The notes under the pieces: model-generated
Told to the model about the DNA's origin: nothing
Databases searched by the model: none
Seen by the model: only the letters and a program-made list of their open reading frames with translations
Virus record (IMG/VR): IMGVR_UViG_3300042914_003231
Coordinates: 1 to 64,000 of that record
Length of the DNA: 64,000 bases
Reading direction: 5' to 3' (one strand)
DNA from: a virus
Taxonomy: Duplodnaviria > Heunggongvirae > Uroviricota > Caudoviricetes
Position numbers and translations under genes: made by a program
Part shown: piece by piece, positions 17,801-60,400 of the stretch
How the letters are laid out: every line of letters begins with the position of its first letter
How positions within the stretch are numbered: position 1 is the first letter of the stretch

Positions 17801-17884
17801 CAAACTTTAAAGATTTAAACTTATAATGTTTACACTATTAAAATATAAGGTTATAAAGAGAAGGATAAAACCTTAACTCATTAT

Positions 17885-17956: not shown

Positions 17957-17962
17957 CTTTAA

Positions 17963-18034: not shown

Positions 18035-18040
18035 CTGAAT

Positions 18041-18114
18041 AGGCCCTTAGCTCAGTTGGTTAGAGCAGTACTCTTATAAGGTAAAGGTCACCGGTTCAAA
18101 CCCGGTAGGGCCTA
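18041..18114 (+). tRNA. tRNA-Ile (TAT), reads ATA
   Basis: Acceptor AGGCCCT/AGGGCCT; loop CTTATAA; T arm ACCGG-TTCAAAC-CCGGT. Confidence 0.85.
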
Positions 18115-18124
18115 CATAATATTT

Positions 18125-18199
18125 AGCGGGGTGACTGGAGTTGGTTCCAGCACAGCCTCATAAACTGTACAGACGCGGGTTCGAGTCCCGCCCCCGCTA
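18125..18199 (+). tRNA. tRNA-Met (CAT), elongator-like
   Basis: Acceptor AGCGGGG/CCCCGCT; loop CTCATAA; T arm GCGGG-TTCGAGT-CCCGC. No 3xG:C initiator signature in the anticodon stem. Confidence 0.85.
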
Positions 18200-18265
18200 C
18201 AATGAGTGCTAATGACACCTGATAAAGGAGGGGATATATTACCAGGTCCCCCGACACTCAGTAAC

Positions 18266-18337
18266 GCTCCCATCATCTAGGGGTCAGGATATCAGGTTTT
18301 CGACCTGAGCACCAGGGTTCGAATCCCTGTGGGAGTA
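18266..18337 (+). tRNA. tRNA-Glu (TTC)
   Basis: Acceptor GCTCCCA/TGGGAGT; arm TCAGG-TTTTCGA-CCTGA; T arm CAGGG-TTCGAAT-CCCTG. Confidence 0.9.
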
Positions 18338-18342
18338 CTTAA

Positions 18343-18415
18343 GCTTGAGTAGCACAATTGGTAGTGCACCTCCCTTGTAAGGAGAAGGTTGTCAGTTCGA
18401 GTCTGACCTCAAGCT
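18343..18415 (+). tRNA. tRNA-Thr (TGT)
   Basis: Acceptor GCTTGAG/CTCAAGC; D GCAC/GTGC; loop CTTGTAA; T arm GTCAG-TTCGAGT-CTGAC. Confidence 0.9.
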
Positions 18416-18417
18416 CT

Positions 18418-18491
18418 GTGTCTGTAGAGGAATTGGTAGACTCCCCGGAATGTGGATCCGGTGCTTGTGGGTTCAAGTCCCATCAGACACC
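18418..18491 (+). tRNA. tRNA-His (GTG)
   Basis: Acceptor GTGTCTG/CAGACAC; arm CCGGA-ATGTGGA-TCCGG; T arm GTGGG-TTCAAGT-CCCAT. The only tRNA followed by an encoded CCA. Base -1 is T, not G. Confidence 0.88.
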
Positions 18492-18497
18492 CCATTA

Positions 18498-18571
18498 GTT
18501 CTCATAGCTCAATTGGATAGAGTCCTTGACTACGGATCAAGAGGTTGAAGGTTCGACTCCTTCTGAGAACA
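18498..18571 (+). tRNA. tRNA-Arg (ACG)
   Basis: Acceptor GTTCTCA/TGAGAAC; arm CTTGA-CTACGGA-TCAAG; T arm GAAGG-TTCGACT-CCTTC. Confidence 0.92.
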
Positions 18572-18576
18572 CATAA

Positions 18577-18647
18577 TGCCCTTTCGTCTAACGGCAGGAC
18601 CTGTGGTTTTGGGCCACATGATCGAGGTTCGAATCCTTGAGGGGCAA
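18577..18647 (+). tRNA. tRNA-Gln (TTG)
   Basis: Acceptor TGCCCTT/AGGGGCA; arm TGTGG-TTTTGGG-CCACA; T arm CGAGG-TTCGAAT-CCTTG. Followed by a T-run. Confidence 0.9.
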
Positions 18648-18680
18648 CTAGTTTTTTATTGTTTGCACATCCAAAGTTTT

Positions 18681-33649: not shown

Positions 33650-34278
33650 GTAATAACTATGTATACAGACATATTCGGCTAGATAAGAATGAGCCTTTTT
33701 ACATAGGTATAGGTTCTGGAGATTCCTATAAGAGAGCACATTCTAAAAGAGGTAGAAGTAGGTTTTGGACAGCTATTTCTAAAAAAGGATATGTTGTGCA
33801 GATCTTAGCTGAAAATCTAATTAGAGAAGAAGCTTCTATAAAGGAAAAAGAGTTTATAGAGCTATATGGAAGATTGGATTTAAAAACCGGAAGCTTGTGC
33901 AACTTTACAACAGGTGGTGATAATAATTATTCTCTATCTTGTTTGACAAAGGAAAAAATGAGAAAAGCTCACACCGGTCTTAAGCAATCTACAGGCTGTG
34001 TAGAAAAAAGAGTGGAAAAATTAAAAGGTAAGAAAAGAACACCAGAGTTTTGTGAAAGAATAAGGCTTATAAAGTTAGGATCTAAACTTCCTTCTTTAAG
34101 GAGAAAAAGACCTGAGATAAGTATAGCAAAGCAACAAAAAGTTATGAATACAGATACTCATGAAATATATGAATCTGTTAATGATATGGCTAAAGCTCTT
34201 CATATTCATCCTTTAACTGCTACTAGATGGTTGAAAAATCCAGACAAGCCTTTCATAAAAGTTAAAAATATAAGATAA
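33646..34278 (+). CDS. GIY-YIG homing endonuclease (free-standing), 210 aa
   Basis: YVYRHIRLDKNEPFYIGIG...R...EKEFIELYG...N, plus NUMOD-like C-terminal repeats. ATGA overlap with the terL stop. Confidence 0.85.
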   Translation: MSNNYVYRHIRLDKNEPFYIGIGSGDSYKRAHSKRGRSRFWTAISKKGYVVQILAENLIREEASIKEKEFIELYGRLDLKTGSLCNFTTGGDNNYSLSCLTKEKMRKAHTGLKQSTGCVEKRVEKLKGKKRTPEFCERIRLIKLGSKLPSLRRKRPEISIAKQQKVMNTDTHEIYESVNDMAKALHIHPLTATRWLKNPDKPFIKVKNIR

Positions 34279-44719: not shown

Positions 44720-46114
44720 ATGAGTTATTTTAACCATGCCTTCTCCAAGCAATTTCTTGGAACCGGCCCAACCCGCAACCTGGTTAGTACTGGCGCAGCT
44801 GCTTCAGTAACCAACCCTTTTTCAAACGGTGGTTTCATCTTGACCCCTGGTACAAGCACAACCACTTTATCAAATCTTCCAGCAGGTACTACTAACTTGC
44901 CTAAATCAGGTTACTTTGGATTTTTTGATCCAAACACTTACCTGTCTATTGATCCAACATTGACGACTTACAACTGTTGTCCTTTAGTGTTAGCTTCGGC
45001 TTCATTATTGACTAATGACAAGATTGGTCCTTTTCACGGTGGTTACCGCGAGACTAACAAATCTAAGGTAATTAATCCTAAGTATGTACAAAAAGCATAC
45101 AAGGTTACTACTTGCGTTCCTCAACAAACTGTAGTTTCTGTAGGTAGCACTCCTCAAACTCTTTTACCAACTGTTCCTGAAAAATTCCAAGGTGGTACAA
45201 CTTCTGCAACATGTTGTTTTACTTTCCTTTGTGGTGAAACATACTACTTACGCGTAGATATTAAAGGTTCTCCTGCACTTCGTGCTTTGAATCACAATGC
45301 TTACCAAACAGTAGATGCTTATACAGGTTGCTGTGCAGGACCTACTCCAACACCGGTTGACTCTACTTTAGTGTTCATTCAGTGGGCTGAGCAAATCATT
45401 CAAAATAACTACTTAAAGCCTTTTGTGCTTCCAGTAGTATTTGATCAAACTGGTGCTGCATGGTATGCTCCTGGTACTACAGTAGATCCTATTACTTTAG
45501 CTCCAGTATTACCAGCTCAGTGGTGGACTGCTTATGTGTCTCCAGGATATACTACAGGTGCTTGTGGTGGTATGCGTTTATTCGGTGCCTTTGTTGAGAC
45601 AAAGTTTGGTAACTGTACTTTCCAAGTAACTGATTTCTTCGAGAAAGAGCCAATTAAGATTTATGCCTCTATGGTTGACTACACTGGTGATCCTTGTGTA
45701 TTCGAAGGAATTTGTGTGTATAACGACTGCCTTGGCTTACAAGGTATGGGCTTTGGTGAACAAGTTGTTCGTGACTTGATCCTTTCTGAATCATACTTAC
45801 AAAACTTCTTTGCAAGTAATGACTTCCGTGTGAGAGAGATCACTCAAGGTTATGACATCTTGAACTCTGTAAACCGTAATGCATTGTACACTCGTTACTT
45901 CTTGTTACATAGTGTGCCTCGTTTCAACAACCCTACTGGTGTGTTTGATAATGATCGTTACATGCTTGAGATTATTGTTCCTGAGGTTAACCCTCTTGTG
46001 CCGGTAGGAAATCCAGCATTGGATACCTTCTTGACCAACTGGTTAGCAAGTTGTGCAAACTGTGTACCTTTTGAAACACAATCTTGTACATACTGTACTC
46101 CAGAAAACAACTAA
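44720..46114 (+). CDS. abundant structural protein (major tail protein or second shell protein?), 464 aa
   Basis: Own promoter-like box and a strong terminator; capsid-like codon usage; several Cys pairs (NCC, CCF, GCCAG). Confidence 0.7.
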   Translation: MSYFNHAFSKQFLGTGPTRNLVSTGAAASVTNPFSNGGFILTPGTSTTTLSNLPAGTTNLPKSGYFGFFDPNTYLSIDPTLTTYNCCPLVLASASLLTNDKIGPFHGGYRETNKSKVINPKYVQKAYKVTTCVPQQTVVSVGSTPQTLLPTVPEKFQGGTTSATCCFTFLCGETYYLRVDIKGSPALRALNHNAYQTVDAYTGCCAGPTPTPVDSTLVFIQWAEQIIQNNYLKPFVLPVVFDQTGAAWYAPGTTVDPITLAPVLPAQWWTAYVSPGYTTGACGGMRLFGAFVETKFGNCTFQVTDFFEKEPIKIYASMVDYTGDPCVFEGICVYNDCLGLQGMGFGEQVVRDLILSESYLQNFFASNDFRVREITQGYDILNSVNRNALYTRYFLLHSVPRFNNPTGVFDNDRYMLEIIVPEVNPLVPVGNPALDTFLTNWLASCANCVPFETQSCTYCTPENN

Positions 46115-46134
46115 AATTATAAGCCTAGAAAGAA

Positions 46135-46161
46135 GGGGAGGGGGGAACTCCTCCCTTTTTT
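46135..46161 (+). terminator. strong intrinsic terminator
   Basis: 8-bp stem GGGAGGGG/CTCCTCCC with a GGAA loop and T6. Confidence 0.8.
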
Positions 46162-46167
46162 GTTAAT

Positions 46168-46488
46168 ATGCAGTCTATTCTTAGATGTAAAAAGCCGAGT
46201 TGCTCAAATAGTTTCGAGCAAACTAGAAAAGACAGAGTCTATTGTTCTAGACACTGTAAGACTACGCATAAGACTAACAAAAGCAAGAAGAAAAAGCAAA
46301 AGCCCTATACAATTTTTAAAAAAGATATTTGTGAAAATTGTAAATTTGTACCTATCCATTCTTGCCAGTTAGATGTAGATCATATTGATGGTGATAATAA
46401 TAACAATCAGCCATACAATCTGAGAACCTTATGTGCAAACTGTCATAGGCTAAAAACATTTATGAGTGAGGATTGGAAAAAAGTTTAA
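46168..46488 (+). CDS. HNH homing endonuclease, 106 aa
   Basis: CQLDVDHIDGDNNNNQPYNLRTLCANCHRLKT. Begins 7 nt after the terminator. Confidence 0.8.
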   Translation: MQSILRCKKPSCSNSFEQTRKDRVYCSRHCKTTHKTNKSKKKKQKPYTIFKKDICENCKFVPIHSCQLDVDHIDGDNNNNQPYNLRTLCANCHRLKTFMSEDWKKV

Positions 46489-46499
46489 TAAATTTCATC

Positions 46500-47063
46500 A
46501 TGTCAAGACACGTTTTAAGTCTGGAAATACCAGACACACTCAATAAGTGTATTCTAAGGGTAGTTGACACTAGTGTCTATGACCCAAACATAGCTGTTAC
46601 TTGTCCTCTGTTACAAGTAACTACACCTGGTTTTATACATCCTGTTAATTTTTCTGAGCCTCAAATTTTTCCCGGATTCATGGCGAACTTAACAGCTTGT
46701 GATCTAGGCCTTCAAACAGCAGATTGTAATACTGTGTTCTTTGATATTCCTGATGGGATTTATATCATAAAGTATAGTGTTGAACCAAAAAAGTTTGTGT
46801 ATGTTGAATACAATCACTTAAGAACAACTTGTGCTTTAAATCGAATCAATAAGATTCGATGCTCTCTAAACCTTGGAGCTTGTGAACCTCCTACAGATGT
46901 TTTACAAAAGCTTCAACAAATTGGTCTAATTGAACAATACATTAAAGCTGCTAAAGCCTATGTAGAAGATTGTCATGATCCTAAAAAAGGTATGGAAATC
47001 TTTAAGTATGCTGTAAAGCTAATTGATAAGTTATCTTGTTCAACTGGATGTGAAACTTGCTAA
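46500..47063 (+). CDS. Cys-containing virion protein, 187 aa
   Basis: Start set at ATG 46500. Ends CSTGCETC. Confidence 0.6.
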   Translation: MSRHVLSLEIPDTLNKCILRVVDTSVYDPNIAVTCPLLQVTTPGFIHPVNFSEPQIFPGFMANLTACDLGLQTADCNTVFFDIPDGIYIIKYSVEPKKFVYVEYNHLRTTCALNRINKIRCSLNLGACEPPTDVLQKLQQIGLIEQYIKAAKAYVEDCHDPKKGMEIFKYAVKLIDKLSCSTGCETC

Positions 47064-47085
47064 ATAATTTTTAAAACCAACAAAT

Positions 47086-47277
47086 ATGAATTGTACAAAC
47101 TGTGGAGCTAAATTAGGATGTGGTTGTCAAAAAAGAATTGCTAGTGATGGCAGATCTTGTTGTGCTAACTGCATTTCAGCATACGAAGCCGGTCTTAAAA
47201 AAACCAATTTAAGTATGCCAGGAACTAAACCTTCTAATGTAAGTGTGTTTTACACAGCTCCAAAAAAGACAAACTAA
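47086..47277 (+). CDS. small Cys-rich protein, 63 aa
   Basis: MNCTNCGAKLGCGCQKRIASDGRSCCANC. Confidence 0.6.
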   Translation: MNCTNCGAKLGCGCQKRIASDGRSCCANCISAYEAGLKKTNLSMPGTKPSNVSVFYTAPKKTN

Positions 47278-47280
47278 CAA

Positions 47281-50200
47281 ATGGCATGTTACGAAATACA
47301 AAATTGTCAGACTAATACTACTAGTATAATTAGTTATGCAGGACCTAGTTTAACACTTGGGGATATTATTAAACCTACACCTTCTATCGATCCGCCAAAT
47401 GTTAGTGCTGATTGCTGGACGGTTATTGGGGGTCCTATCCCTTGTGACAGTTTGCCTTTTGTAACAGTTACCAGTGTTGTTATTTATAATAGTTGCTCAC
47501 CTTGTATTGCAACACAACTTCCTACTTGTTATGAACTTACTGATTGTTCAGGAACTGTTGTATACTATACTAATGATAATCTATCATCTTTTGTAGGTAA
47601 CTATGTTTCTAGCCCTCTTTATCCGGGATATTGCTTTTATGTAGCAGTATCTCAAACTTGTACTAATCCTGTAGCTTTTAGTAATCCTGTTGCTTGTACT
47701 TGTACTTGTTATACTTTAACTGATTGTGAAGGAATTATTCCCCCATTTAATACATTCTCTAACTTAGCAGCTTATTTTGGTCAGGTAATTCAAATTAATG
47801 AAAATGGTGGATGTGCTGGACCATGTTTCTTTGTTAGTGTTAACACTGGAACATGTGGTGAACCTCGTGCTGCTACTGTTACACTTAATTGTCAACCGTG
47901 TCCTCCTTGTAATGATTGTTATGTACTACTTGACTGTACTACAAGACAACCGTTTCTCACTCTTTCAAACCCTACAGCAAATGGTATTGACTTATCTACT
48001 CTTATTGGTCAAGTTATTGGTCAAGTTTGTCTTGGCCCTAATAATACGCAATGTACAAATGGTTGTTGGGAAATTCAACAAGCTTCATCATGTGCTGGAT
48101 CAGTAAATGCTTATGTATATAACATATTCCAAGATTGTGTATCATGTAATGCAGTATGTTATAAGTTTACAAATTGTCAAACCTTACAAGAGATACTTGT
48201 TACTTACACTGTTCCGAATATTACTCTACCGAATCCATCAACTCTTTTAGGTAATACATTAGGTTCTTTATGTTTTAAACCTCCTACAAATTGTTTATCT
48301 GGGTGCTGGAATGTATCACTTAATGATACTGCAGATTGTTCAGGAGCTATTGATTGGACCGCTGCTCTTAGTTACACAGAGTTTGCAAATTGTACTCAGT
48401 GTCAGCCTGCGTGTTACCTTCTTACTGAATGTGCTCCGGCAATTACTCCTCCTTTTATTGTGAGTAATGACTTGAGTCTTTATGTAGGAAATGTTGTTAA
48501 AATATGTGACTCTCAAGGTAATTGTAATTGCTATAATGTAGAACTTGCACAAACTTGTGATGGATCTATTGTTATAGATAATGCTAATGCAAGCTTTACT
48601 ACTTGTGAAGAATGTAATTCTTGTGATTGTCCTCCAGGTTATACTAAGATTGATGACTATTGTCAAAAAATTACTAGTGTTCCTGCTATCTTAAATCCTT
48701 CTATTTATAACTCAGCTCCAGGAAGTATTAATGATAACTACGGTAGTCTTGGTACAAGATTCTATCCGAATGTTACAAGTCTTCCTTATCCTTTAACAGC
48801 TGTTACTGGACCAGATAGATTTGTTGATTTTGCTAATGTTAATGTTTCTTATACATCAAGTGTAGTAGGTATATGGGGTGGTCCTGTCGGATCAAGATTA
48901 AGTACGGTTGGTATATGGACATCTGTTGCTCCTAATCCTATAAACGAATGGATCGGTTTTGCACAGTGTATTAATATTCCTACAACCGGAACTTATTGTG
49001 TAGGTATTGGTGGTGATGATTGTGTAAGAGTAAAACTTGACGGAGTTATTATTGCAGAGGCTTGTATAGGATTTTTTGATTTTAGATACTGGCATGTATT
49101 TGAGTTAAATCTTACAGCAGGAACTCATGTGATTGTTGTTGAAGGAAATAGTGGAGGTGGACCTGCAGCCTTTGGTGCTGAAATTTATCAAACTAACATT
49201 GTTGCTTTACAAGCAATAACTACTGTCCCAGCTTTACAAGCTATTACTGTGTTTAGTACTTTCCCAATGAGAAGTACTCCAACACCATTCCAAACCGGTC
49301 AAACATCTGGTTACTCTTGTCCTCCAGGTTCAACACTTAATTTGTGTGGAACACCTAGTTGTACAATTATTGAAACTATTCCTTTTGTTTCTTGTGCTCC
49401 AACATTCAGAGTAACTGATTGTGCAGGTATTATGGAACCTTTTATTACTAATACAGATCTTTCTTCTTACCTAACAGGTATTCATAAAACTTGTATTACA
49501 ACTGCTAATTATAGTACTACTTGTTACTTATTAAGAGACTGTAACCGATTAGTAGATGAAGTTATTACAACAAGTAATATGGAGTCTTATCTATGGACTT
49601 CTGTTTCTCTTAATGAATATCCGGGATCATGCTTTTTAGTATTACCTTTACCTTCAAATACCACATGTGTAACTAATCCTGTAACATTAAGTTCTAATCC
49701 TTGTGTTTGCCCTAATGCTCAACAGCCTTGGCCAAATGGTTGCTATTGTGTTACAGTAGAAGAAATACTTATACCAGAAGTAGCTCCAGATTTTCTTGGA
49801 GTATTCCAAAATCAACTTTATAACTGCTGTGAGGACTGTCTTCGCGTGTGCTATTTACTTACAGATTGTCAAGGAGCCCTTGACCCAGTAGTAGTATGTA
49901 ATGATCTAGAACTATATATAGGAAAAATAATTCAGATTGAAGGTTGTGGTGATACTTGTTGGCAAGTTGCAACATCAAACAATTGTAATAGCAATACAAT
50001 CTTTGCTGGAGCTATTACCAGTTTCGAAACATGTGAAGATTGTCTTCCGCCAATTCCTCCAGCTCCACTTTTAGAGTTGCACCCAAGAAGAATTAAACCA
50101 GGGTACTTCAGCCCTAACTGTAAGATTCCTTTAGAATATATTGAAAAAGTAAACTGTACTTTTGCTAGACAAGTTTATGACAGTATGCTTATATTAAGAT

Positions 50201-51525
50201 ATGGTATAACAGTTTGTTGTGATCATGACTTACCTCTTTGGGCCAATCGAAAAGCAATTCTTGATTATGAGATGTTAATCGATCCTAGCTTATGTAAGTC
50301 TACATTATGTTATTGTCCAAAACCTTGTCTCATCAGTGTGGAAATTGTATTACTTCCTACATGTGTTGCTCCTGTAATAGTAAATACTTTGATAGATTTT
50401 GTATGTCCTGCTCCAGTAGTTATTGATGCAGTAATTGAATACAATCCAGTTACGGCTGATTGTAATTGCTATACAATAACTCCTCTGGAACAACCTATAG
50501 AAATGTTGTATTTGGATTGCTGTTGTGCTTTACAAAGAATAATAATTGATAATTTAGAACCAATAAATATTTGTGCTAGTACAACTCCTGCTATTTATCC
50601 ACAATCAGGTAGTGCTACTGTAGTACTTAATGGTGATTGTAACGATCTTGGTCCATGTAATCCTCCAATATGTTATTGTTGGAAGGTAACTAATACTAAT
50701 TCTCCAGGTTCACCTGATGGTGAAGCTTCATTTGATGCATGCTCTACAGGGCCATCCCAAACAAGTGTGTCTGCTTTTGTATCTGCTGGAAGCTTTATTT
50801 CTAATTGTGCATTTAACCCACCTACAGTTAGTTCAGGATTAGTTGTTGAAAACATGGGGCCGTGTGTTAATGGTCGTTGTGTACCTCCTCCATGTCAGTG
50901 TTATGAAGTAACATCTATGGTATCATGCCTATACAATTATACAAACTGTGATGGACAACCTGCTACTATACTAACAACTCCTGGTATTTCATACATCTGT
51001 TCTCAGACTTTACCATTTCCAGATGCTATTTGTTCAAACGAAAGTTCAGTAATTCTTACATCTTACCCTTGTGATCCACTACTTGGTACTTGTGGTCCAC
51101 CTCCTCCATGTGTTTGTTATATTGTAACAATTCAAACTCCGGGTGGTCAAGGTTGTAGTATAGATTATACTCCGTGTGGAGAATCACCTAGATCACAAAT
51201 ATTCCCTGATGGCCTAAACTATATCTGTTCACAAACTCCTCCTGTGCAAAGCGTTGGATCAACTTGCACAGTAACTATTCAGTCTACATCACTGAATTGT
51301 GGTTTAGGAGAATGTAATGATTTTGTATTACCTTGTAATTGTTATACATTTACAGTTCAAGGTAGTAATTTTGCATTCCAAAGTATAATAGACTGTTCAG
51401 GAAATCCTGGTGAAATAGGAGGTGCACCTGGAACAGTAGGTGTTGCTTGTGTACAAAATTTTGGGCCACCTAACCCTAATATTATTATATCCGCTACACC
51501 AGGAGCTTGTGGATCAACCTGCTAA
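47281..51525 (+). CDS. giant Cys-rich repeat protein with a central PA14-like domain (adhesin/receptor-binding candidate), 1414 aa
   Basis: At least 9 copies of a ~60-85-aa CY.LTDC module, about 5 C-terminal C.CY..T modules, and a PA14-like segment TGTYCVGIGGDDCVRVKLDGVII...LTAGTHVIVVEGNSGGGPAAFGAEIY (about nt 48706-49191). Confidence 0.75.
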   Translation: MACYEIQNCQTNTTSIISYAGPSLTLGDIIKPTPSIDPPNVSADCWTVIGGPIPCDSLPFVTVTSVVIYNSCSPCIATQLPTCYELTDCSGTVVYYTNDNLSSFVGNYVSSPLYPGYCFYVAVSQTCTNPVAFSNPVACTCTCYTLTDCEGIIPPFNTFSNLAAYFGQVIQINENGGCAGPCFFVSVNTGTCGEPRAATVTLNCQPCPPCNDCYVLLDCTTRQPFLTLSNPTANGIDLSTLIGQVIGQVCLGPNNTQCTNGCWEIQQASSCAGSVNAYVYNIFQDCVSCNAVCYKFTNCQTLQEILVTYTVPNITLPNPSTLLGNTLGSLCFKPPTNCLSGCWNVSLNDTADCSGAIDWTAALSYTEFANCTQCQPACYLLTECAPAITPPFIVSNDLSLYVGNVVKICDSQGNCNCYNVELAQTCDGSIVIDNANASFTTCEECNSCDCPPGYTKIDDYCQKITSVPAILNPSIYNSAPGSINDNYGSLGTRFYPNVTSLPYPLTAVTGPDRFVDFANVNVSYTSSVVGIWGGPVGSRLSTVGIWTSVAPNPINEWIGFAQCINIPTTGTYCVGIGGDDCVRVKLDGVIIAEACIGFFDFRYWHVFELNLTAGTHVIVVEGNSGGGPAAFGAEIYQTNIVALQAITTVPALQAITVFSTFPMRSTPTPFQTGQTSGYSCPPGSTLNLCGTPSCTIIETIPFVSCAPTFRVTDCAGIMEPFITNTDLSSYLTGIHKTCITTANYSTTCYLLRDCNRLVDEVITTSNMESYLWTSVSLNEYPGSCFLVLPLPSNTTCVTNPVTLSSNPCVCPNAQQPWPNGCYCVTVEEILIPEVAPDFLGVFQNQLYNCCEDCLRVCYLLTDCQGALDPVVVCNDLELYIGKIIQIEGCGDTCWQVATSNNCNSNTIFAGAITSFETCEDCLPPIPPAPLLELHPRRIKPGYFSPNCKIPLEYIEKVNCTFARQVYDSMLILRYGITVCCDHDLPLWANRKAILDYEMLIDPSLCKSTLCYCPKPCLISVEIVLLPTCVAPVIVNTLIDFVCPAPVVIDAVIEYNPVTADCNCYTITPLEQPIEMLYLDCCCALQRIIIDNLEPINICASTTPAIYPQSGSATVVLNGDCNDLGPCNPPICYCWKVTNTNSPGSPDGEASFDACSTGPSQTSVSAFVSAGSFISNCAFNPPTVSSGLVVENMGPCVNGRCVPPPCQCYEVTSMVSCLYNYTNCDGQPATILTTPGISYICSQTLPFPDAICSNESSVILTSYPCDPLLGTCGPPPPCVCYIVTIQTPGGQGCSIDYTPCGESPRSQIFPDGLNYICSQTPPVQSVGSTCTVTIQSTSLNCGLGECNDFVLPCNCYTFTVQGSNFAFQSIIDCSGNPGEIGGAPGTVGVACVQNFGPPNPNIIISATPGACGSTC

Positions 51526-51575
51526 TAAGATTTGCTAAATTGATAAAAAATAAGTATATTTAATAAACAAGAATA

Positions 51576-53045
51576 ATGAAGCCACTTAACATAGACAAAA
51601 CCGGTTGCAGTAATATATCATCTAATTGTGTTACATGGCAAGGTCCTGATATTGAGTGTATTAATTTATGTAAGGGTGACTCCGTTACTGAAGTAGTATA
51701 TAAATTAGCCCTTGAATTATGTAATCTTATGGACACTTTTGATCTTAAGAATTATGATCTTAAGTGCTTTTCTACCGGAGTGTGCCAACCTAAAGATTTT
51801 AAAGACTTCTTAAACATTTTAATCACCAAAGTATGTGCACTACAAGATTGCACTGGTTGCGGTGATAATTGTAATCCTTGCCCTACACCAACTATTCCTT
51901 CAACTAATGGGACAAATGGTGATCCTAATCCAGTAATGAAAGTGGCTCCTGCTTTTTACTATACTAATCAGTATGGTGATCAGGTTACTACCATGTCAAT
52001 GCAGGATTATGTAACTACTATTGGCAATCGTGTTTCTACACAAGTAAGCCAGATTCAGAATATTCAGGCTACTTTACTGCAGCAAAATGAGCGTATTACA
52101 AATCTTGAAAATAAACCAGATCCTAGTTTTAGTATGCCTCAAATTGTACAAGATGGGAATTTAGTTAATCTGGATGTTGTTTTACAAACATTAAGCAGTG
52201 AGTTTTCTCAGCTTGAAAATGCAACGGGTGATCCTAATTCCATCTACACAAACATGCAAAAAGTAGATGCTAATTTGTCCAACACGCCTAGTTTAGCTAC
52301 CCCTGGTGCTACTATGGGATCTTTACCAGGATGGACAGTAAATCCTTCTAACCAAGCTGAAAGCTTTGGTAACATGTGGAAAACTATCTTAGATATAAGA
52401 AATGCTGTTCAAAACTTAATCAATAATTATGTTCCAAATATCTGCTCTAGTATCTCTATTAGCTTAGTTGCTACTTATGACTCTAATGTTAACCAAGTAA
52501 CTCTTTACTTTACTGGTGCTATTCCTACAGATTTTGTTAACACAATCCCTGGAGGAACAACTTTTACAATAGCTGACGTATATAATAATACTACAACAGT
52601 ATTGATTGATATTCAAAGTGTAATTAATAATGTAGCTGGTTATGTTGTTCCTCTTGGAGGAACTCGTTTAAATACAGCAGGTAACTTGATTATATCAGCT
52701 AGTCCTTCTTATAATAGCAGATCAACAGGTTCTCAGTGTGTATCTACTCTAAACTTTACTATTGTAAATACAGGAGCCTGCCCTTCTGCAACTTACACTC
52801 CTACTAACAACTCTATTGAGTATTCATTTACTACAGAGTCAGGAACAAGAACATATACTGTTGAATTATCAAATAGTGGCGGTGGCCTACCTCCTACTAT
52901 ACAAACATTCACAACTACTAGTGTACAAAACATTACAAGTGTGTTTGCAGGATTAACTTCATTGACTAATTACACAGTAAGAATAACAGTAACTGTAAAT
53001 GGTGTATCAACAGCTTGTCCAATTACAGCAGTAACAACATTATAA
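51576..53045 (+). CDS. virion protein, 489 aa, with an N-terminal Cys module shared with 53057..54271
   Basis: SSNCVTWQGPDIECINLCKGDSVTEVVYKL aligns with DSKCVIYTGEDLPCIGVEQGNSIEQVILAL in the next gene. Confidence 0.65.
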   Translation: MKPLNIDKTGCSNISSNCVTWQGPDIECINLCKGDSVTEVVYKLALELCNLMDTFDLKNYDLKCFSTGVCQPKDFKDFLNILITKVCALQDCTGCGDNCNPCPTPTIPSTNGTNGDPNPVMKVAPAFYYTNQYGDQVTTMSMQDYVTTIGNRVSTQVSQIQNIQATLLQQNERITNLENKPDPSFSMPQIVQDGNLVNLDVVLQTLSSEFSQLENATGDPNSIYTNMQKVDANLSNTPSLATPGATMGSLPGWTVNPSNQAESFGNMWKTILDIRNAVQNLINNYVPNICSSISISLVATYDSNVNQVTLYFTGAIPTDFVNTIPGGTTFTIADVYNNTTTVLIDIQSVINNVAGYVVPLGGTRLNTAGNLIISASPSYNSRSTGSQCVSTLNFTIVNTGACPSATYTPTNNSIEYSFTTESGTRTYTVELSNSGGGLPPTIQTFTTTSVQNITSVFAGLTSLTNYTVRITVTVNGVSTACPITAVTTL

Positions 53046-53056
53046 AATAAACTAAA

Positions 53057-54271
53057 ATGAGCGATTGTACAAAATGTGGAAAATGTCAAGAAGACTGCGG
53101 GTGCATTCCTAGAGGTATGACAACTCCTAACTATTGCCCTGGAGATCTTCCGCCTTGTCCTGAGCCTTCACCATGTAATGAAACATTTGATAGCAAGTGT
53201 GTTATCTATACAGGAGAAGATCTTCCTTGTATTGGAGTAGAACAGGGTAATTCGATAGAGCAAGTTATTCTTGCTTTAAATGAAAAACTGTCTCCTCTGT
53301 TTTGTTTAGAGTGTCCTAGTTTAAATATCCCGGCTAATAATGCTGTGAATATCCCTTATGATCAAACTCTAAACTGGAATGCTGTTCCAGGAGCTACATC
53401 TTATGATGTGTACTTTGGAACAACTGCTGTTAATCCTCCTCTTGTATCAGCTGGTCAAATTTCAACAGCATATACTTATCCGTATCCGTTGCTTCCAGGA
53501 ACTGATTATTACTGGAAAGTAGTACCTAAGAATGCTACAAGTGCTGCACAAAATTGTGCTACTTACCAATTCAAGACTAAAGAAGTTACTTGTGTAAATC
53601 CTTTATCTTACATGCTTGAGTATGTAATGAGTGAGCAACCTTTAAACAGTGTGTTTAATCCTGGAACTTTAGTTGACTCTATAGTTGATTTTTTGAATAA
53701 TGGTGAGTTAATCACTAACTGTAATTTTTGTTGTCCTGATTGTAAAGATACTAACAGATATGTATTAGCTTCTGCTCCTTTGTACGCGTTACACTATAGC
53801 CAATTCTATAGTCTTCCTAATTGTCCTCCAATATGCTGTACAGAAGTAGATGCTTCTTTAACAGCTATGATTGCTACATTCAATAATGCTTCTCCATCTT
53901 TATCTGAAGCCTTTAAAGATATTCCTCCTGTGACAAACTGTTGTGGAACAAACTTCAGCGAATGTGCTGATTCTTTAAAAGTTTCTTTAGGTACATCACG
54001 GGATGCTATTTTCAAATTATTAGGTGTAGTAGAAGAATCTACAATTAGTAATACAACGCAGCTTTGTGTACTATCTACATTCTTAAACTCATTACCGCCA
54101 GCAGTTACTGATGCTCAAAAAGCTTCAATTATTGCTGCAATTCTTAACAATGGATTTGTTGTAGATTGCCGTCCAGAGGGTACTATTATTTCAGGAATTC
54201 AGAAATACAAACAATACATAACAGCTGTTCAAGATGGCTGCTTATGTTATAAACCATGTATAACACCATAA
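53057..54271 (+). CDS. Cys-rich virion protein with an FN3/Ig-like segment, 404 aa
   Basis: LNWNAVPGATSYDVYFGTT...GTDYYWKVVPKN is FN3-like. Many CxxC/CC pairs. Confidence 0.65.
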   Translation: MSDCTKCGKCQEDCGCIPRGMTTPNYCPGDLPPCPEPSPCNETFDSKCVIYTGEDLPCIGVEQGNSIEQVILALNEKLSPLFCLECPSLNIPANNAVNIPYDQTLNWNAVPGATSYDVYFGTTAVNPPLVSAGQISTAYTYPYPLLPGTDYYWKVVPKNATSAAQNCATYQFKTKEVTCVNPLSYMLEYVMSEQPLNSVFNPGTLVDSIVDFLNNGELITNCNFCCPDCKDTNRYVLASAPLYALHYSQFYSLPNCPPICCTEVDASLTAMIATFNNASPSLSEAFKDIPPVTNCCGTNFSECADSLKVSLGTSRDAIFKLLGVVEESTISNTTQLCVLSTFLNSLPPAVTDAQKASIIAAILNNGFVVDCRPEGTIISGIQKYKQYITAVQDGCLCYKPCITP

Positions 54272-54282
54272 ACCAATAAAAC

Positions 54283-55014
54283 ATGCTAACACCAGCAACA
54301 TTAACAGTAACATTCACAGCTAACTATGCAGGACCACACAGAATCTGTTGGAGAATCCAAGGATCTACAGGACCATATGTGTGCACTAATATAGTAAACT
54401 GCGCGGGAGGGGGAAACGTCTGCCAAGCAGTGGTATCCATAATGGTGGATCCTGAAAGTTGTGATCCAGTTACCTACGAAGGATATATTCAAGCAACTTG
54501 TAATCCGGAAGGATCTCCTGTAGATCAAGTACCTTGGGTGGCTACTTTTACACCTAATCCAGTATGTAAAATGTATAGTATTAGATCTACACCTAATGTG
54601 CTTTGTACAACTCCTCCACAATTGCTTCCGTTAATTCCTGCTACCACAATGGGTCTGAACTGTAATGGTACAGCTAGACCAGCTGTTCAGCTTTTTTGTG
54701 CTAAACCTGTTTATTTGTGTGCAGTAGGTATCATCCCTAATTTACCTCCAGAGTATGTTATGACATTATTTGATGGTTGCTGTTATGATTGTACTGAATA
54801 TGATGTTACTATTTCACCAGCTTGTCCTGGTTGTGTACTTAATGGATCAAGCATATATTACATAGATTGCAATACAAAAGAATTAATAAGACAAGACTTT
54901 ACTGGTAATACTGCTGTAACAATTTCCGGTATTTGTGCTGTTACTGGTTCTGTATCTTTACAAACGACTGAGGAAGCTAATGGTGTAATTACACCAATCG
55001 GACCTTGTTCATAA
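54283..55014 (+). CDS. Cys-rich virion protein, 243 aa
   Basis: ORF track; Cys residues throughout. Confidence 0.65.
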   Translation: MLTPATLTVTFTANYAGPHRICWRIQGSTGPYVCTNIVNCAGGGNVCQAVVSIMVDPESCDPVTYEGYIQATCNPEGSPVDQVPWVATFTPNPVCKMYSIRSTPNVLCTTPPQLLPLIPATTMGLNCNGTARPAVQLFCAKPVYLCAVGIIPNLPPEYVMTLFDGCCYDCTEYDVTISPACPGCVLNGSSIYYIDCNTKELIRQDFTGNTAVTISGICAVTGSVSLQTTEEANGVITPIGPCS

Positions 55015-55161: not shown

Positions 55162-55764
55162 ATGGGAGATATGATGTTAAAAAAATTTAGAAAACCTGAC
55201 GTTAAGGCTCCTAGATGTAGACCTGGAGCAAGTAGACTAGTTAACAAAACTTTTCTAGATGAGCTTGCTAGTTGCCATCCTGAAACAAAAGACTTAGGAA
55301 TAGCCGATGTAAATAAAATATTACAAACAATGCATGGTAAAATGTGGGACCATGCTGCTAACTATCGAGATGGAATAGAGCTTTTTGAACAGCTTGGTTT
55401 TGTATTTGTTGGTACCTGCAATTCTCCAAAGAAGTACAATGTGGATTATGGTAACTCTATTAAGAATGGATCTACTCTAAGACACAGAAATTTTGAGTCT
55501 GATAATTATTTAGCTAAGATCTTCTATACAAACTTTGCTTCTAAGTATAAGTTTAAAAATAGAGATATGTGGATGTTTGAACCAACGCGTGCATTTCAAA
55601 GAACTGTATCTAAGATATATCCTGAGAAGTGGAAGATTTTTGTTCAAGTAGAGAACAACAGAAATATCTCAAGATACATAGAAAAAGCTATGAAATCTTC
55701 TTTTATAAAAAAGAGATCTATGCTGCCAGTAGATGATAACTATGATGAATTCAATTTGGACTAA
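55162..55764 (+). CDS. hypothetical protein, 200 aa
   Basis: Start set at ATG 55162, just after the TATATTTA box at 55153-55160. Confidence 0.6.
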   Translation: MGDMMLKKFRKPDVKAPRCRPGASRLVNKTFLDELASCHPETKDLGIADVNKILQTMHGKMWDHAANYRDGIELFEQLGFVFVGTCNSPKKYNVDYGNSIKNGSTLRHRNFESDNYLAKIFYTNFASKYKFKNRDMWMFEPTRAFQRTVSKIYPEKWKIFVQVENNRNISRYIEKAMKSSFIKKRSMLPVDDNYDEFNLD

Positions 55765-56435
55765 TGACAACAATAGGTGATTCAATATCAAGGGTTAGAA
55801 ACCTAGTTAAAGGTGTTAAGGAAGATGCTTTCCTTACTGACCGACTTATCTTTTCTCTAATCGAGAAGTATGGTAAGCTTCTTATTAAAAGACAAGATGA
55901 TCAGAACAAGATCATGAAGTTTCAGTCTTTGTTTGAGAAACTACCTTGTGTAGAACTTATTGAAGTAGATAAAATAGAAGCTTGTTGTGCTGGCATAAAA
56001 TCCGGTTGTACAATTCGAAGAACTAAAGAAAAATTACCTACAGTCCTTGAAGGAGCATATGGTCCATTGTTTAGAACAATATCATCTATTGATGGCTCTA
56101 TTGAGTTTTTTAAAACTTATCCTACTACTTATGTAGCAATGACACATAGTACTAATTTTAAGTACAATAAAAATAAGTATTATTGGTATTTAGGTGGGCA
56201 TCTTTATTTTCCAAATATCGATTGGGATTCTGTTTCTGTAGAAGGCTTATGGGATGGAAGTATTCAAAGATATATTTGTGGTGGAGATGTTTGCTTGCCA
56301 AGACAACAACAAAAAATTCCTCTTCCGGAATACATGTTTGCTGACATAGAAAATATGGTTATTAAAGATCTTCTTACTACTATACAGTTACCGGTTGAAA
56401 ATAATGATGATAATCAAAACATCTTAAGAACATAA
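55764..56435 (+). CDS. hypothetical structural protein, 223 aa
   Basis: ORF track; ATGA-type junction. Confidence 0.6.
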   Translation: MTTIGDSISRVRNLVKGVKEDAFLTDRLIFSLIEKYGKLLIKRQDDQNKIMKFQSLFEKLPCVELIEVDKIEACCAGIKSGCTIRRTKEKLPTVLEGAYGPLFRTISSIDGSIEFFKTYPTTYVAMTHSTNFKYNKNKYYWYLGGHLYFPNIDWDSVSVEGLWDGSIQRYICGGDVCLPRQQQKIPLPEYMFADIENMVIKDLLTTIQLPVENNDDNQNILRT

Positions 56436-56439: not shown

Positions 56440-57462
56440 ATGAGTTACAACTATACCCTGAAATATAAGACATTCAACCAGTTGCTAGAAGAAATACATG
56501 TGGATTTTCAGAATTACAACTTAGAATCTTTTATCGAACCTCAACAATTAATTAAGGTTGCTAAGCGTGTTAGTTATGAACTCGGCTTAAGAGTTCTTAT
56601 GACAAAAGAAGCTCTAGTAGAAATTCATAATGGAAAAGTAAGACTACCTGATGATTTTTATGTTCTTAACTACGCTTTGGTGTGTGATCATCTTACTATT
56701 AATGAGCCGGTGATTCAAGGAACTAATATGCAAGAAATTCCTTTAGCTCCTCCTCGTTATGAAACTTCTGCTATTATTGATCCTTGTACAGATGCTATTC
56801 CAAATTGCCAAACTTGTGGGGTACCTACATATCCATGCGCATGTCCTAGTCCGTCTAATTGCCTACCTCCGCCTCCTAATGAAGTAAATTGCACTAAGCC
56901 TAGAATAGTACTTACTTGTAAAGGTAATAATTATGAGCTAGTTCAAGTTGTGAAGACTCAAACTAGAACTTTTAGAAGATTATGGGCTTTACAATTTCTT
57001 GCTAATGATCAGACTATTGCTTGCAACTGTCCAAATCTTTATGTGAAGAGTCCTAACCATGCTTGGATACGAGATGGTTTTTTGTTTACTAATTTAGAAA
57101 ATGCTAATATATACATTAGTTATCAAGGAATGTTAGAAGATGATGAAGGAAACCTTTTAGTTCCGGACCATGATCTTATCAATGAATACTATGAGTATGC
57201 TCTTAAAAAAAGAATTCTTGAAAATCTTATCATGAATGATGAGAATGTTTCTCAGGCAAAGATTCAACTTATTGAAAATGGTTATAGAACATCTAGAAAT
57301 TTAGCTATGAGTGTTGTAAATACTCCTAACTTTGCTGAAATGAAAGAAATGTGGTGGCAAAATAGAAAAGCTCAGTATGGTAAATATTATGATATGTTTT
57401 CTAGCTATCCATGGAATCAAGCTTTCAATATTAATGTTCAAGGACAAATGAACCAATACTAA
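56440..57462 (+). CDS. structural protein with a Cys/Pro-rich insert, 340 aa
   Basis: CQTCGVPTYPCACPSPSNCLPPPPNEVNC. Confidence 0.6.
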   Translation: MSYNYTLKYKTFNQLLEEIHVDFQNYNLESFIEPQQLIKVAKRVSYELGLRVLMTKEALVEIHNGKVRLPDDFYVLNYALVCDHLTINEPVIQGTNMQEIPLAPPRYETSAIIDPCTDAIPNCQTCGVPTYPCACPSPSNCLPPPPNEVNCTKPRIVLTCKGNNYELVQVVKTQTRTFRRLWALQFLANDQTIACNCPNLYVKSPNHAWIRDGFLFTNLENANIYISYQGMLEDDEGNLLVPDHDLINEYYEYALKKRILENLIMNDENVSQAKIQLIENGYRTSRNLAMSVVNTPNFAEMKEMWWQNRKAQYGKYYDMFSSYPWNQAFNINVQGQMNQY

Positions 57463-60400
57463 TGGCACAAGAACAGAATACAAGCAATAATCAAGTAAGA
57501 ACTTTTGATAAGTCTCTTAATGAAGATGTTAATGACTTTCATTTGCCATCCAATGAATGGACTCATGGTAGAAATGTGATCAATAACTCTGTAACTGGTG
57601 ACTTAGGTAAACTTGGAAACGAGCCTGCAAACATTCTTTGTGTTCAAGCACCTTATCCTATTATCGGGTTTATTCATATTATTGAAGATCGATGGGCAGT
57701 TTTCTCTACTGATGGAACTAACTCCGAGATTGGTCTGTTTATAGAAGGTAATTGTGGTACTTTGGAGCCAGCATATTATACTATTGTAAATGCTCCGTGC
57801 TTAAAGTTCAATATAGAAAAGCTAATCATTGGTGTTTCCCGTCCTACAAGTACTTGTACTTACAAGTTATATTGGGATGATGGTATCAATCCTTCACGCG
57901 TTCTTGAGATAGACATAGATAATCCTAGCAGAAACTGGTATACTGATCCTAATAGTACTCTTCCTTGGGTACAGAATTGTGTAGATAGTAATGGTCCTTC
58001 TCCTGGTGGATGTATCATTTGTACTAATACTCCGGTGTTAGACTGTGATAAGATCAGACTAGCATTATTTATCAATCCTATTTGTCCTCGCGTAGAGAAT
58101 GGGACACAAGGTGGAAACCTTCTTAATGGTTCTTACATGGTTGCTATGGCCTATGCAATAAAGGGTCAGAAGATATCTGATTGGTATGTTTCCAATGTAC
58201 AGTCATTATGGACTCATCAGAATTCATCAGGCTCTATTGATGTGTTCATCGATAGTATTGATCCTGATTTTGATGAAGTAATTGTTACTGTGATCTCTGT
58301 TACTAACCAGCAAACTGTTGCAAGACAAGCTGGAGTATACAGCACGCGTCAAACTCGCTTAGGCTTTGATATTATATCAGACACATGGCCGGCTGTCCCT
58401 ATTGAACAGCTTCCTCTAATGACTCCTATTATTGATAAGTCAGATGCTATGTACAATGTTGGTGACTATCTTATTCGTGTAGGACCAACATCAAAAGAAG
58501 ATTTCAATTATCAGCCTCTGGCAAATCAGATTGTTTCTAAGTGGCAATCTGTAGAATACCCAGCTGACTACTATTATAAAGGAAACAATAAGACCGGTTA
58601 CATGAGAGATGAGGTTTATCCTTTTTTCATTGTGTGGGAATATGATACAGGTGATGAATCTGCAGCATATCACATTCCTGGCCGTCCTGCTTTTTCTTCA
58701 GATCTTACACCTCCTGCAGGTAATGTGATTGCTGGAGAAACACAAACTTGGCAAGTATACAATACAGCAACTCAAACTGCTACTCCTGGTACTGTATTAC
58801 CGGATGGTGGTGTAGTTATTGCTGAAGGCTTAATGGGCTACTGGCAATCAACAGAATACTATCCTGATAAAAAGCCTCAAGTATGGAATGCAAGCGCACA
58901 TTGTTGGTCATCTCTGAACCCGGGCTCGATCCCAGGATGCTTAGAACCAACTCCACCTATACCGTATACAGGTACTGCTTCAGGCCTAGCATCATTCGAT
59001 TTATGTGGTACTCCAATACGACATCATAAGTTTCCTGAAGATAGTCTTACAACTCAAACAAACCGTTTTAATGCTGGTGTAGGAAACAAGATTAGAATTA
59101 TGGGTGTGAAGTTTGAAAACATCAGAGCTCCTAGAAGAAGTGATGGAAGTCTTATTCCTGGTATTATAGGATACAAGATCATGCGTGGTACTCGTAATGG
59201 TAACAAAACTGTTATTGCTAAGGGTATGATCAATAACACACATGAGTATGATATTCCTGGAGCACCGGGCACTAAAGGCTATTATCCTAACTACCCATTT
59301 AATGATCTTAGAGATGATCCATTTTTAAGTACTACTCAGACAAGTACAGCATCTATTTTAAATCCTGCTTTACCAGGAGGAGATATAAAAAATTACAATG
59401 CTATGCCTGGAGGATTTGGTACAGGTAGATTCAGTCCTAATCTAGTAACATTTCATTCACCAGAAACTAACTTCAACAATCCTTATTTAGCTACAAAAGA
59501 GCTAAGGATCTATCAAGGTATTAATGGTAATGTGAAAGGCAAGTTTGAAATATCAGAACAGCATCCTAAAGAAAAACTTATTACTGATATGGCTTTTATC
59601 ATAGCTTCTATTGGAGGTTTAGGTGTTGCTGCTTTGGCTACAAATGGTAATAGAAGAGTTCATAGAGAATATCCTAACTATCAAGGTTTCTCACAAGAGC
59701 CTAATTACTTTACTAAGAATACTTATAACTTAAATGAGAATGGTTCAATAAATGGTACTGACACTTCTACTCAAGCTCCTTATCCAGAAGCAGGTACTGA
59801 AACCGGTGGTCCTTTACCTACACCTGTTGCAACAGCCAATCTGATAACACCTACTCCGATCATTACTACTTTAAATGAAACAACTACTAATAATGTAAAT
59901 GGGACTACTGATTTGAGTGTTCCTCAGAAAACTAATATAATATCTCAGCCAGCACCAACTCATTTACCTATTATGAGTCCTGCTTTAGTTGCAGTGTTTT
60001 CAGCTTTTACAGGATATGATGCAGTTAAAAATTCAGGAGCCTCTTTAGCTTTAACTATTGTTCCAGGAACTACAGATGATGTAGCTCAAGAAGCCGGAAT
60101 GAATACAGCAAATACAGCAGCTACAAGTTCACTTACAGGTGTATCAAGTGCTCAGATAACTATTGAAAATGAAGATGGTGATTACCAAGGTATCCCGCAA
60201 CCATTTAGAACAATAAGTTCTTTTCCATTATTCTTAAACTACTATAGTGATGGTACAGACAGTTTGATAAGACTTATCCGTGCTATCATCCGTTACAAGG
60301 ATTATGTAGTAAGATATCATTCACATGGTTTCTACAACAGAACAGAAAACAGACCTGTTACTTTTAGAACAGCTTTATCTGATCAGCAATATATTGATCC

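Follow-up and report, generated by a model that had tools for sequence, protein, structure and literature searches.

The open reading frame (ORF) at 47281..51525 (+) of a 64,000-nt stretch of viral DNA (IMG/VR record IMGVR_UViG_3300042914_003231; the whole stretch is hereafter the window) encodes a 1414-amino-acid (aa) protein that we read, with a probability of roughly 60%, as a virion-exposed modular adhesin or receptor-binding appendage on the tail of an uncultured crAss-like phage. What is new here is most likely a phage host-adhesion appendage made of three undescribed domain families, named F1, F2 and MID below, together with a divergent PA14 lectin. Disulfide bonding, rigidity, glycan binding and location on the virion are predicted properties of the protein. 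The ORF is present as called in an earlier note on this DNA, with an ATG start, and its product contains 122 Cys residues (8.6%), with Thr, Pro, Ser, Val and Asn also plentiful. From the N-terminus onward the order of modules is six F1 copies, a cEGF-like hairpin, a PA14-type β-sandwich, a Cys-rich cap, three F1 copies (one nested), MID and five F2 copies; about 17 small modules, each folding independently, are strung together in this way. The earlier note had described repeats around a central domain, which stands, and had overlooked MID, the nested F1 copy and the cEGF-like and Sushi-like flanks of the central domain; its proposal of a fibre or adhesin is consistent with the hypervariable slot in a crAss-like tail module in which the gene lies. 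The protein start is conserved, with F1 at residue 3 in nearly all of ~35 full-length homologs, and inspection by eye (no predictor was run) shows no signal peptide, the start MACYEIQNC already belonging to F1.

The gene content of the window identifies it as a distant, uncultured crAss-like phage. Among its ORFs, PHROGs profiles match TerL (4.8e-58) and portal (1.5e-91), and Pfam profiles match Crass_capsid (6.7e-32), CrAss_Ring_2 (2.6e-22), CrAss_Ring_1 (5.3e-12) and crAss_MUZ (3.9e-27), so that TerL, portal, a crAss-type major capsid protein (MCP), Ring 1, Ring 2 and Muzzle are found co-linear, as in the Crassvirales virion module. No close relative of the window was found among 50,697 deposited phage genomes (tblastn against INPHARED; megablast of 20 kb), and the whole 1414-aa protein gave zero matches in Pfam (E≤1), PHROGs, NCBIfam and tblastn against INPHARED.

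Module architecture

Matches to the F1 motif, C[YFW]x[LFV]x[DNE]C, begin at aa 83, 143, 213, 293, 378, 748 and 857; two further starts, at aa 3 and 708, are degenerate. When a hidden Markov model (HMM) was built from eight copies and applied to the omitted ninth, each of the nine scored 23-52 bits, compared with ≤13 bits for the best of 999 composition-matched shuffles against the F1 HMM; all starts that had been listed (aa 3, 83, 143, 213, 293, 378 and three later ones) were thereby recovered, each above the 999 shuffles, and the periodicity claimed for them has statistical support. The N-terminal array, on the + strand like every feature of the protein, comprises copy 1 (47287..47526, aa 3-82), which is the most divergent F1 (23.3 bits, shuffles ≤8.5), copies 2 (47527..47706, aa 83-142), 3 (47707..47916, aa 143-212), 4 (47917..48156, aa 213-292) and 5 (48157..48411, aa 293-377), all four defined by motif and leave-one-out HMM, and copy 6 (48412..48621, aa 378-447; 46 bits), the best conserved copy of this array. 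Following the central module, copy 9 (49849..50055, aa 857-925) is canonical, with 8 Cys, 52 bits and a predicted local distance difference test score (pLDDT) of about 80.

Between these two regions one F1 bead is nested inside another. The segment at aa 708-747 (49402..49521), which might have been taken for a truncated F1 copy, is the N-terminal half of a split outer copy 7, the C-terminal half of which lies at aa 813-856 (49717..49848), and a complete F1, copy 8 (49522..49716, aa 748-812; 49 bits alone), sits in the loop in between. Spliced together, aa 708-744 and 813-856 align end-to-end to HMM positions 1-67 with 41.5 bits, whereas the half by itself reaches 29.4 bits. Copy 7 has a contiguous equivalent in the closest homolog, P0002, and the loop of the 1414-aa protein holds a ~70-aa insertion relative to P0002 that corresponds to a complete F1; copy 8 is also absent from P0004, P0006, P0010 and P0034. 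AlphaFold models the nested region with a pLDDT of 86-94.

F2 is too divergent to be proven from one protein, and ortholog profiles were therefore needed. Occurrences of its motif, CxC[YW]x[VIF]T, beginning at aa 1061, 1131, 1205, 1277 and 1352, define copies 1 (50461..50670, aa 1061-1130), 2 (50671..50892, aa 1131-1204), 3 (50893..51108, aa 1205-1276), 4 (51109..51333, aa 1277-1351) and 5 (51334..51522, aa 1352-1414), the last forming the C-terminus. From the 1414-aa protein alone, only the copy at 1205 is clearly above shuffles, so that the earlier claim of about five F2 repeats does not hold on that basis; with ortholog-column profiles it does, as nine of ten copy pairs reach an hhalign probability of 89-99%, the remaining pair (24%) being that of copy 5 with copy 2, the most divergent F2. 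The profile of copy 3 detects each of the remaining four, with scores higher than those of all 999 shuffles (E 1e-4 to 2e-15). That F1 and F2 might be divergent forms of one repeat was ruled out by an hhalign probability of 10%.

The region between the last F1 and the first F2 (aa 926-1060) was considered as a linker, which is ruled out by the conserved single-copy module, MID, that it contains. MID (50056..50328, aa 926-1016) reads LELHPRRIKPGY..NC.F..QVY..ML..RYGIT.CC..DL..W..K..LD..L.DP..CKST.C and has the core motif R-x-[VI]-K-P-G-Y ... C-x-F-[AS]-E-x-x-Y ... R-Y-G-I-x-x-C-C ... K-W-x-I-K-K-x-L-[LI]-D-L ... D-P; a less conserved Pro/Val-rich connector (50329..50460, aa 1017-1060; identity 0.42) follows it. 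MID is present in 153 of 194 collected F1 proteins, after the last F1 copy in those inspected and often C-terminal. Although it is strongly conserved (0.65), AlphaFold gives the monomer a pLDDT of only 32-46, with two helices, and no relative in the PDB was found by sequence profile. MID is probably not a stand-alone small protein, as the two contexts examined are crAss-like slots with an interrupted ORF, one (L010) broken by one in-frame TGA and the other (L011), on a 3.6x-coverage contig, by many stops; such ORF breaks account for the many short "stand-alone MID" proteins in databases. The TGA of L010 (positions 2704-2706; ENA ERZ19401178 scaffold_4154) splits the slot gene within an F1 copy at a site where P0046 has Gly; mutation, sequencing error and stop-codon recoding are all possible causes.

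F1, F2 and MID are three domain families described in none of the libraries searched. They are absent from Pfam, NCBIfam and PHROGs, and profile searches for sequence relatives in the PDB gave E≥0.75 or nothing, which agrees with the novelty that had been claimed for both repeat families. Pfam searches of 17 C-terminal halves returned three matches, all at chance level, and a fold search of the aa 700-1414 model against BFVD returned a single significant match, to an uncharacterised protein of an uncultured phage.

Between F1 copies 6 and 7 lies a conserved central module of 260 aa (CEN; aa 448-707), which encloses the segment earlier proposed to be PA14-like (nt 48706-49191, aa 476-637). It begins with the cEGF-like Cys hairpin CDCPPGYTKIDDYCQKITSV (48622..48690, aa 448-470; CxCPPGY...C), modelled as a β-hairpin, continues into a PA14-like β-sandwich core (48691..49230, aa ~471-650) that holds the TGTYCVGIGGDDCVRVKLDG signature, and ends in a Cys-rich subdomain (49231..49401, aa 651-707) with a weak Sushi/CCP resemblance. 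The family-level evidence for the two flanks consists of Pfam matches to cEGF (PF12662) in 10 of 25 orthologs at E≤1 (best 9.1e-6) and to Sushi (PF00084) in 3 of 25 members (best 0.0022), the 1414-aa protein itself matching neither. A profile of the central module gave weak matches against the PDB, to factor H CCP (E 0.01) and to PA14 of RTX/Lap adhesins (E 0.08-0.5), which serve as pointers only.

The AlphaFold model of the central domain has a pLDDT of 89, and its β-sandwich can be superimposed on solved PA14 domains. Structure comparison scored highest with the Kluyveromyces marxianus GH3 enzyme (3abz, 9.8), followed by the phage Chi distal tail protein (8vjh_B, 8.7), a Pleurotus lectin (6kbj, 8.1), the Cea1A adhesin (5a3l, 7.8), DesR (4i3g, 7.7), RsgI3 (6qe7, 7.4), an RTX adhesin PA14 domain (6m8m, 5.8), Vip4 (7mjr, 5.8) and the PA14 domain of MpIBP (6x95, 5.7). 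When aligned via a paralogous copy of the domain, TGTYCVGIGGDDCVRVKLDG falls in register with GTYQFRVRADDGYRIEVNG of 6m8m. PA14 lectins use a cis-peptide Asp-Asp pair (DcisD) to hold the Ca2+ that binds sugar diols (PMC8092209); the corresponding dyad is present here at the level of sequence, with D579 invariant and D580 being Asp in 17 of 25 members and Asn in the other 8. Of 25 domains belonging to the same family, 18 match the Pfam PA14 profile, PF07691, at E≤1 (best 3.9e-5). Three relatives (P0011, P0012 and P0015) bear a second copy of the domain, 28-30% identical to that of the 1414-aa protein, and whole P0011 and P0015 exceed the PF07691 gathering score (32 and 38 bits compared with 24), with two matched stretches each, the better of which lies in this second copy. 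The central domain is thus PA14-like in its modelled fold and in its signature, and these two properties support membership in PF07691, which the protein's own profile score does not. The profile check of the PA14 claim was mixed, because the direct Pfam search fails on the protein's own segment; the part of the claim that stands rests on fold and on the matches across the family.

A CEN-like domain was also seen at aa 1378-1658 of P0049, a 1773-aa protein on another contig of 97.7 kb (independent E-values 4e-7 and 7e-12), together with crAss_MUZ and cadherin Pfam domains. Judged from P0049, the lectin module may be shared between different tail proteins.

The slot in the tail block and its evolution

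The gene order in the window is MCP, small genes, a 234-aa gene, DUF5856, a 464-aa gene, an HNH ORF, genes of 196 aa and 63 aa, the 1414-aa gene, genes of 489, 404, 243 and 224 aa, Ring 2 (55764-56435, +; Pfam CrAss_Ring_2), Ring 1 (56440-57462, +; Pfam CrAss_Ring_1) and Muzzle (57462-62831, +; Pfam crAss_MUZ). The two upstream partner genes, of 196 aa and 63 aa (46473..47277, +), also stand directly 5' of the slot in every related locus, with 48-91% identity across 11 loci. crAss001 has its fibre genes (gp22-gp26) in the interval from portal to MCP and its tail hub genes (gp38 and gp39) immediately upstream of Ring 2. In the window, a single 433-aa gene separates portal from MCP; because this portal-MCP interval is free of fibre genes, 44720-55014 is the sole remaining place for fibres and hub. 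The products of 464, 196, 489, 404, 243 and 224 aa have no informative family match in Pfam, PHROGs or NCBIfam searches.

The slot recurs beyond the window. Five related contigs with long flanks, three of them from distant relatives (P0040, P0044, P0048), have genes of ~465-565 aa, ~165-190 aa and usually ~50-68 aa followed by the slot; all five lie in crAss-like tail modules, and Ring 2, Ring 1 and Muzzle follow in the four of five that extend far enough. In every locus examined the slot is on the same strand as, and between, the MCP and ring/muzzle genes. Cys enrichment is confined to the tail block 44720-55014, where the products of 464, 196, 1414, 489, 404 and 243 aa contain 3.7%, 5.6%, 8.6%, 3.3%, 7.2% and 7.8% Cys, respectively; the 224-aa product (1.8%), MCP (0), portal (0.3%) and the 433-aa protein (0-0.3%) fall outside the enrichment. 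The other Cys-rich proteins of the window are not built from the same modules, as the F1, F2, MID and CEN HMMs match no further copy in six frames.

Database searches yielded 49 relatives of the 1414-aa protein, all metagenomic, of which ~35 share the full layout of 3-11 F1 copies, central module, 2-3 F1 copies, MID and 3-6 F2 copies. Relatives occur, for example, in JGI sample 3300059473, in ERR10151835 and in the GROS21 metagenomes. The F1 family is considerably larger: its profile, searched against 1.84 billion representative proteins, matched at least 810 (counted as clusters at 50% identity) at E≤1e-3 and 123 at E≤1e-30, with arrays of 2-13 copies among the 150 matches listed. The 145 new representatives divide into those with F1 alone (59), F1 and F2 (56), F1 and the central module (21) and all three (9); some F1 proteins carry Sortilin/BNR propellers or VWA domains. 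Slot occupants vary likewise, P0043 and P0048 carrying DUF285 and another occupant lacking PA14. No relatives were found in the genomes of 185,579 cellular species representatives, in a search by close-match patterns of limited sensitivity, and we found no paper that combines crAss-like, cysteine-rich and tail fiber.

The neighbouring gene products share 48-92% identity over their length in eleven related loci. At the distant loci, identity is 48-59% over the full length of the neighbours and 24-31% over 260-480 residues for the slot protein, and in some relatives its N-terminal part is swapped for unrelated domains. By these comparisons the 1414-aa gene is the fastest-evolving and most domain-shuffled gene of the tail block; location in the tail block combined with faster divergence and domain exchange than in neighbouring structural genes is the pattern of a receptor-binding protein or tail fibre. 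Conservation among orthologs peaks in the centre of the protein (0.60-0.73) and is lowest at both termini, with mean identities of 0.35 for F1-1, 0.68 for F1-6, 0.73 for the cEGF-like hairpin, 0.60 for the PA14-like core, 0.65 for MID and 0.32 for F2-5, the least conserved region.

Predicted function and alternatives

The behaviour of Cys columns, counted over 890 full-length F1 copies and 194 F2 copies, bears on how the beads are stabilised. Four F1 Cys are invariant (columns 7, 38, 63 and 66, which include a CxxC). The accessory positions Cys 1 and Cys 47 are both present in 501 copies and both absent in 260 (phi 0.70), and rarer pairs are similarly coupled: Cys33 is present in 36 of the 37 copies that have Cys17, and the corresponding figures are 57 of 58 for the pair 31-36 and 48 of 49 for 32-36. 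F2 has six near-invariant Cys and an even Cys count in 86% of copies, and no Cys-to-His swap occurs at the invariant columns of either family. Paired gain and loss of accessory Cys is the behaviour expected of disulfide partners, and the 1414-aa protein is likely disulfide-stapled. The tail of crAss001 is known to be disulfide-stabilised (PMC10172136).

We propose that the PA14-like domain binds a host surface glycan via Ca2+ held by the D579-D580 dyad, as in PA14 lectins, and that the beads of both repeat families serve as Cys-stapled spacers, which would keep the lectin at a distance from the virion, the arrays setting its reach because their copy number varies. MID would either dock the protein onto conserved tail proteins (the hub, or the 196-aa and 63-aa gene products) or oligomerise it, a role proposed because MID is the only part common to nearly all slot proteins and shows no monomer fold; docking through MID would leave both variable ends pointing outward.

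Several observations weigh against this adhesin reading. Classical phage fibres are trimeric and N-terminally anchored. Virions assemble in the reducing cytoplasm, where about 60 disulfides would be required to form; a search of the 48 other ORFs of the window, which is part of a genome, turned up no gene for a thiol oxidase, a thioredoxin or a Dsb protein. The PA14-like domain has no PF07691 match at E≤1, either within the whole protein or in isolation, and eight of the 25 family members have Asp-Asn in place of Asp-Asp. Sequence cannot reveal either the Ca2+ binding or the sugar binding that we propose for the central domain. For MID, a docking role is suggested by conservation together with low monomer confidence. 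Finally, homology to the crAss001 fibre and hub proteins was not detected in PHROGs or by tblastn against 50,697 phage records, and the F1, F2, MID and CEN HMMs match nothing in crAss001 positions 11000-60000 (49 kb).

Other readings place the protein elsewhere or off the virion altogether. It could be a capsid head fibre or decoration protein, like crAss001 gp21 and gp29 or T4 Hoc, that sticks the virion to environmental polymers (mucus, biofilm or particles, for example) and not to a host receptor. The position of the gene, downstream of the capsid-side genes (MCP, DUF5856) and also upstream of the ring genes, is compatible with such a role; crAss001 head fibres have been proposed to bind external molecules (PMC10172136), but they are small (about 97-120 aa) and encoded elsewhere. 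A monomeric beads-on-a-string design is nearer to Ig-repeat decoration proteins than to trimeric fibres, and the C-terminal half of one ortholog has a chance-level match to Pfam Head_fiber_dimeric (E 0.098). By contrast, host-range determinants typically show domain shuffling and divergence from neighbouring genes as extreme as those seen here, the CEN-like domain of P0049 is accompanied by muzzle (tail-tip) Pfam domains, and the Cys-rich block reaches the 243-aa gene, beyond which the 224-aa gene abuts Ring 2 at the site of the crAss001 tail hub genes; we consider a head fibre improbable. A non-virion lectin released at lysis, which would bind glycans of the host or of competitors and, for example, block superinfection or aggregate cells, draws on the occurrence of lectin domains in non-structural proteins too. 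Such a product fits poorly with a same-strand gene set amid structural genes from MCP to ring/muzzle in every locus examined, with the size of the protein and its conserved gene position, which point to a structural role, and with a start in which a signal peptide is not evident by eye (no predictor run), and we regard it as highly improbable.

The remaining alternatives concern how a tail appendage would be built. In a classical N-terminally anchored trimeric tail fibre, F1 would form the proximal shaft, F2 the distal receptor-binding tip and MID a trimerisation or chaperone element. The steady C-terminal drop in conservation (F2-1 0.42 to F2-5 0.32) resembles that of distal fibre tips, F2 copy number varies, and crAss001 gp22 docks via its N-terminal 26 residues (PMC10172136). 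A docking peptide is, however, expected to be constant, and the N-terminus equals the C-terminus in variability (F1-1 0.35), begins directly with a repeat, ranges from 3 to 11 F1 copies and is replaced in relatives; many family members, moreover, end right after MID without any F2. The trimeric model seems improbable. The bead chemistry could also differ while the role stayed the same: a Zn(Cys)4 site is conceivable in F1 because its four invariant Cys include a CxxC, and C7, C38, C63 and C66, perhaps along with F2 Cys, would then bind Zn2+ to give a stalk of metal-stabilised knuckles that folds in the reducing cytoplasm. Cytoplasmic virion assembly and the failure to find an oxidative-folding gene among the 48 other ORFs are in line with this possibility, which is compatible with an adhesin. 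Working against it are the accessory Cys, which come and go strictly in pairs, the zero count of Cys-to-His changes at the invariant columns, the even Cys number in most F2 copies, the flanking cEGF-like and Sushi-like motifs, both of disulfide-bonded module types, and the disulfides documented in the crAss001 tail; overall we hold Zn2+ binding to be somewhat unlikely. A bolder version of the adhesin reading, to which we give tentative and limited credence, is that the protein represents an undescribed architecture class: a non-trimeric bead chain with about 60 disulfides, combining F1, F2 and MID with eukaryote-like cEGF, PA14 and Sushi modules, anchored through MID to a crAss-like tail and extending two independently evolving arms from one docking point. 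Were this true, the route by which a cytoplasmically made virion protein undergoes massive oxidative folding would be unexplained.

By analogy, an adhesin of this kind would work like a repeat-stalk lectin adhesin combined with a phage tail protein that carries a carbohydrate-binding module. With the PA14 lectins of microbial adhesins (Marinomonas MpIBP and other RTX adhesins; yeast Flo5, Epa1 and Cea1) it shares the signature ...TY.....(A/G)DD..r..vdG in register with 6m8m and an Asp-Asp/Asn dyad at the DcisD position, and its domain, like those of RTX and Flo adhesins, sits at the end of a long series of small repeats. It differs from them in that its domain reaches no Pfam score and is capped by cEGF-like and Sushi-like Cys-rich segments and contains extra Cys, and in that the carrier is a protein of a phage structural module and not a cell-wall or outer-membrane adhesin. 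The relation to the carbohydrate-binding module of the phage Chi distal tail protein is at the level of fold only (14% identity), scaffold protein and morphotype both being different. The 1414-aa protein resembles eukaryote-type mosaics of EGF/cEGF and Sushi (CCP) modules in its array of ~60-80 aa Cys-rich beads of variable copy number, in the weak cEGF and Sushi profile matches of its central module and in the nesting of module within module; unlike these mosaics, it is made in the bacterial cytoplasm and has no signal peptide evident by eye. The fibre/hub system of Bacteroides phage crAss001 (gp22-gp26, THA gp38, THB gp39; Bayfield et al. 2023, PMC10172136) belongs to the same virus order, has adjacent ring and muzzle genes, and also has its appendage genes as the variable part of the module, with gp24 annotated as a putative C-type lectin. 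No sequence relationship between it and the 1414-aa protein was detected; its fibres are annotated as tailspike, polygalacturonase or hyaluronidase-like and are not Cys-rich bead arrays, and gp22 docks by its N-terminus, whereas the conserved element here, MID, is internal.

Lectin modules borne on repeat stalks are already familiar from phage tail proteins, and no concept is therefore overturned. To our knowledge, crAss-like phages are abundant, almost none of their environmental lineages have been cultured and their receptor-binding proteins are not known; the slot described here offers an easily recognised candidate host-range determinant for a whole clade. F1, F2 and MID could enter Pfam and so improve the annotation of proteins now labelled "hypothetical". 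A PA14-like lectin with a conserved Asp dyad predicts Ca2+-dependent glycan binding, and the Cys load poses the biochemical question of how such proteins fold.

Other features of the window

Several observations concern genes around the slot. An HNH endonuclease ORF (46168-46488, +; PHROG HNH 2e-9) lies between the 464-aa and 196-aa genes, overlaps the start of the latter and is missing at the same position in two related loci (L001 and L002); it is likely a mobile homing endonuclease. A 210-aa ORF in the TerL-portal interval (33646-34278, +), with a weak NUMOD1 match (E 0.0097), may be a second one, and the structural module of crAss001 likewise holds intron endonucleases. The 489-aa protein downstream of the slot has a central heptad-like stretch by eye and only a weak Fib_alpha match. 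At the DUF5856 position, L001 encodes a Ferritin/Rubrerythrin-like protein of 174 aa (7133-7657), and in L006 the gene after the slot (12480-14561) has an Ice_binding (PF11999) domain.

The window as a whole has divergent arms, 1-12900 (-) and 14100-64000 (+), with a strand switch near 12-14 kb. Pfam matches of its other ORFs include a holin, an M15/VanY peptidase, Band_7, PcfJ, a PD-(D/E)XK nuclease and an HU-like protein. Positions 15080-18648 (+) hold 24 tRNA genes covering all 20 amino acids; tRNA-Cys(gca) and tRNA-Ile(tat) are among them, a suppressor tRNA is not, and this array accounts for a GC peak at 16-18 kb.

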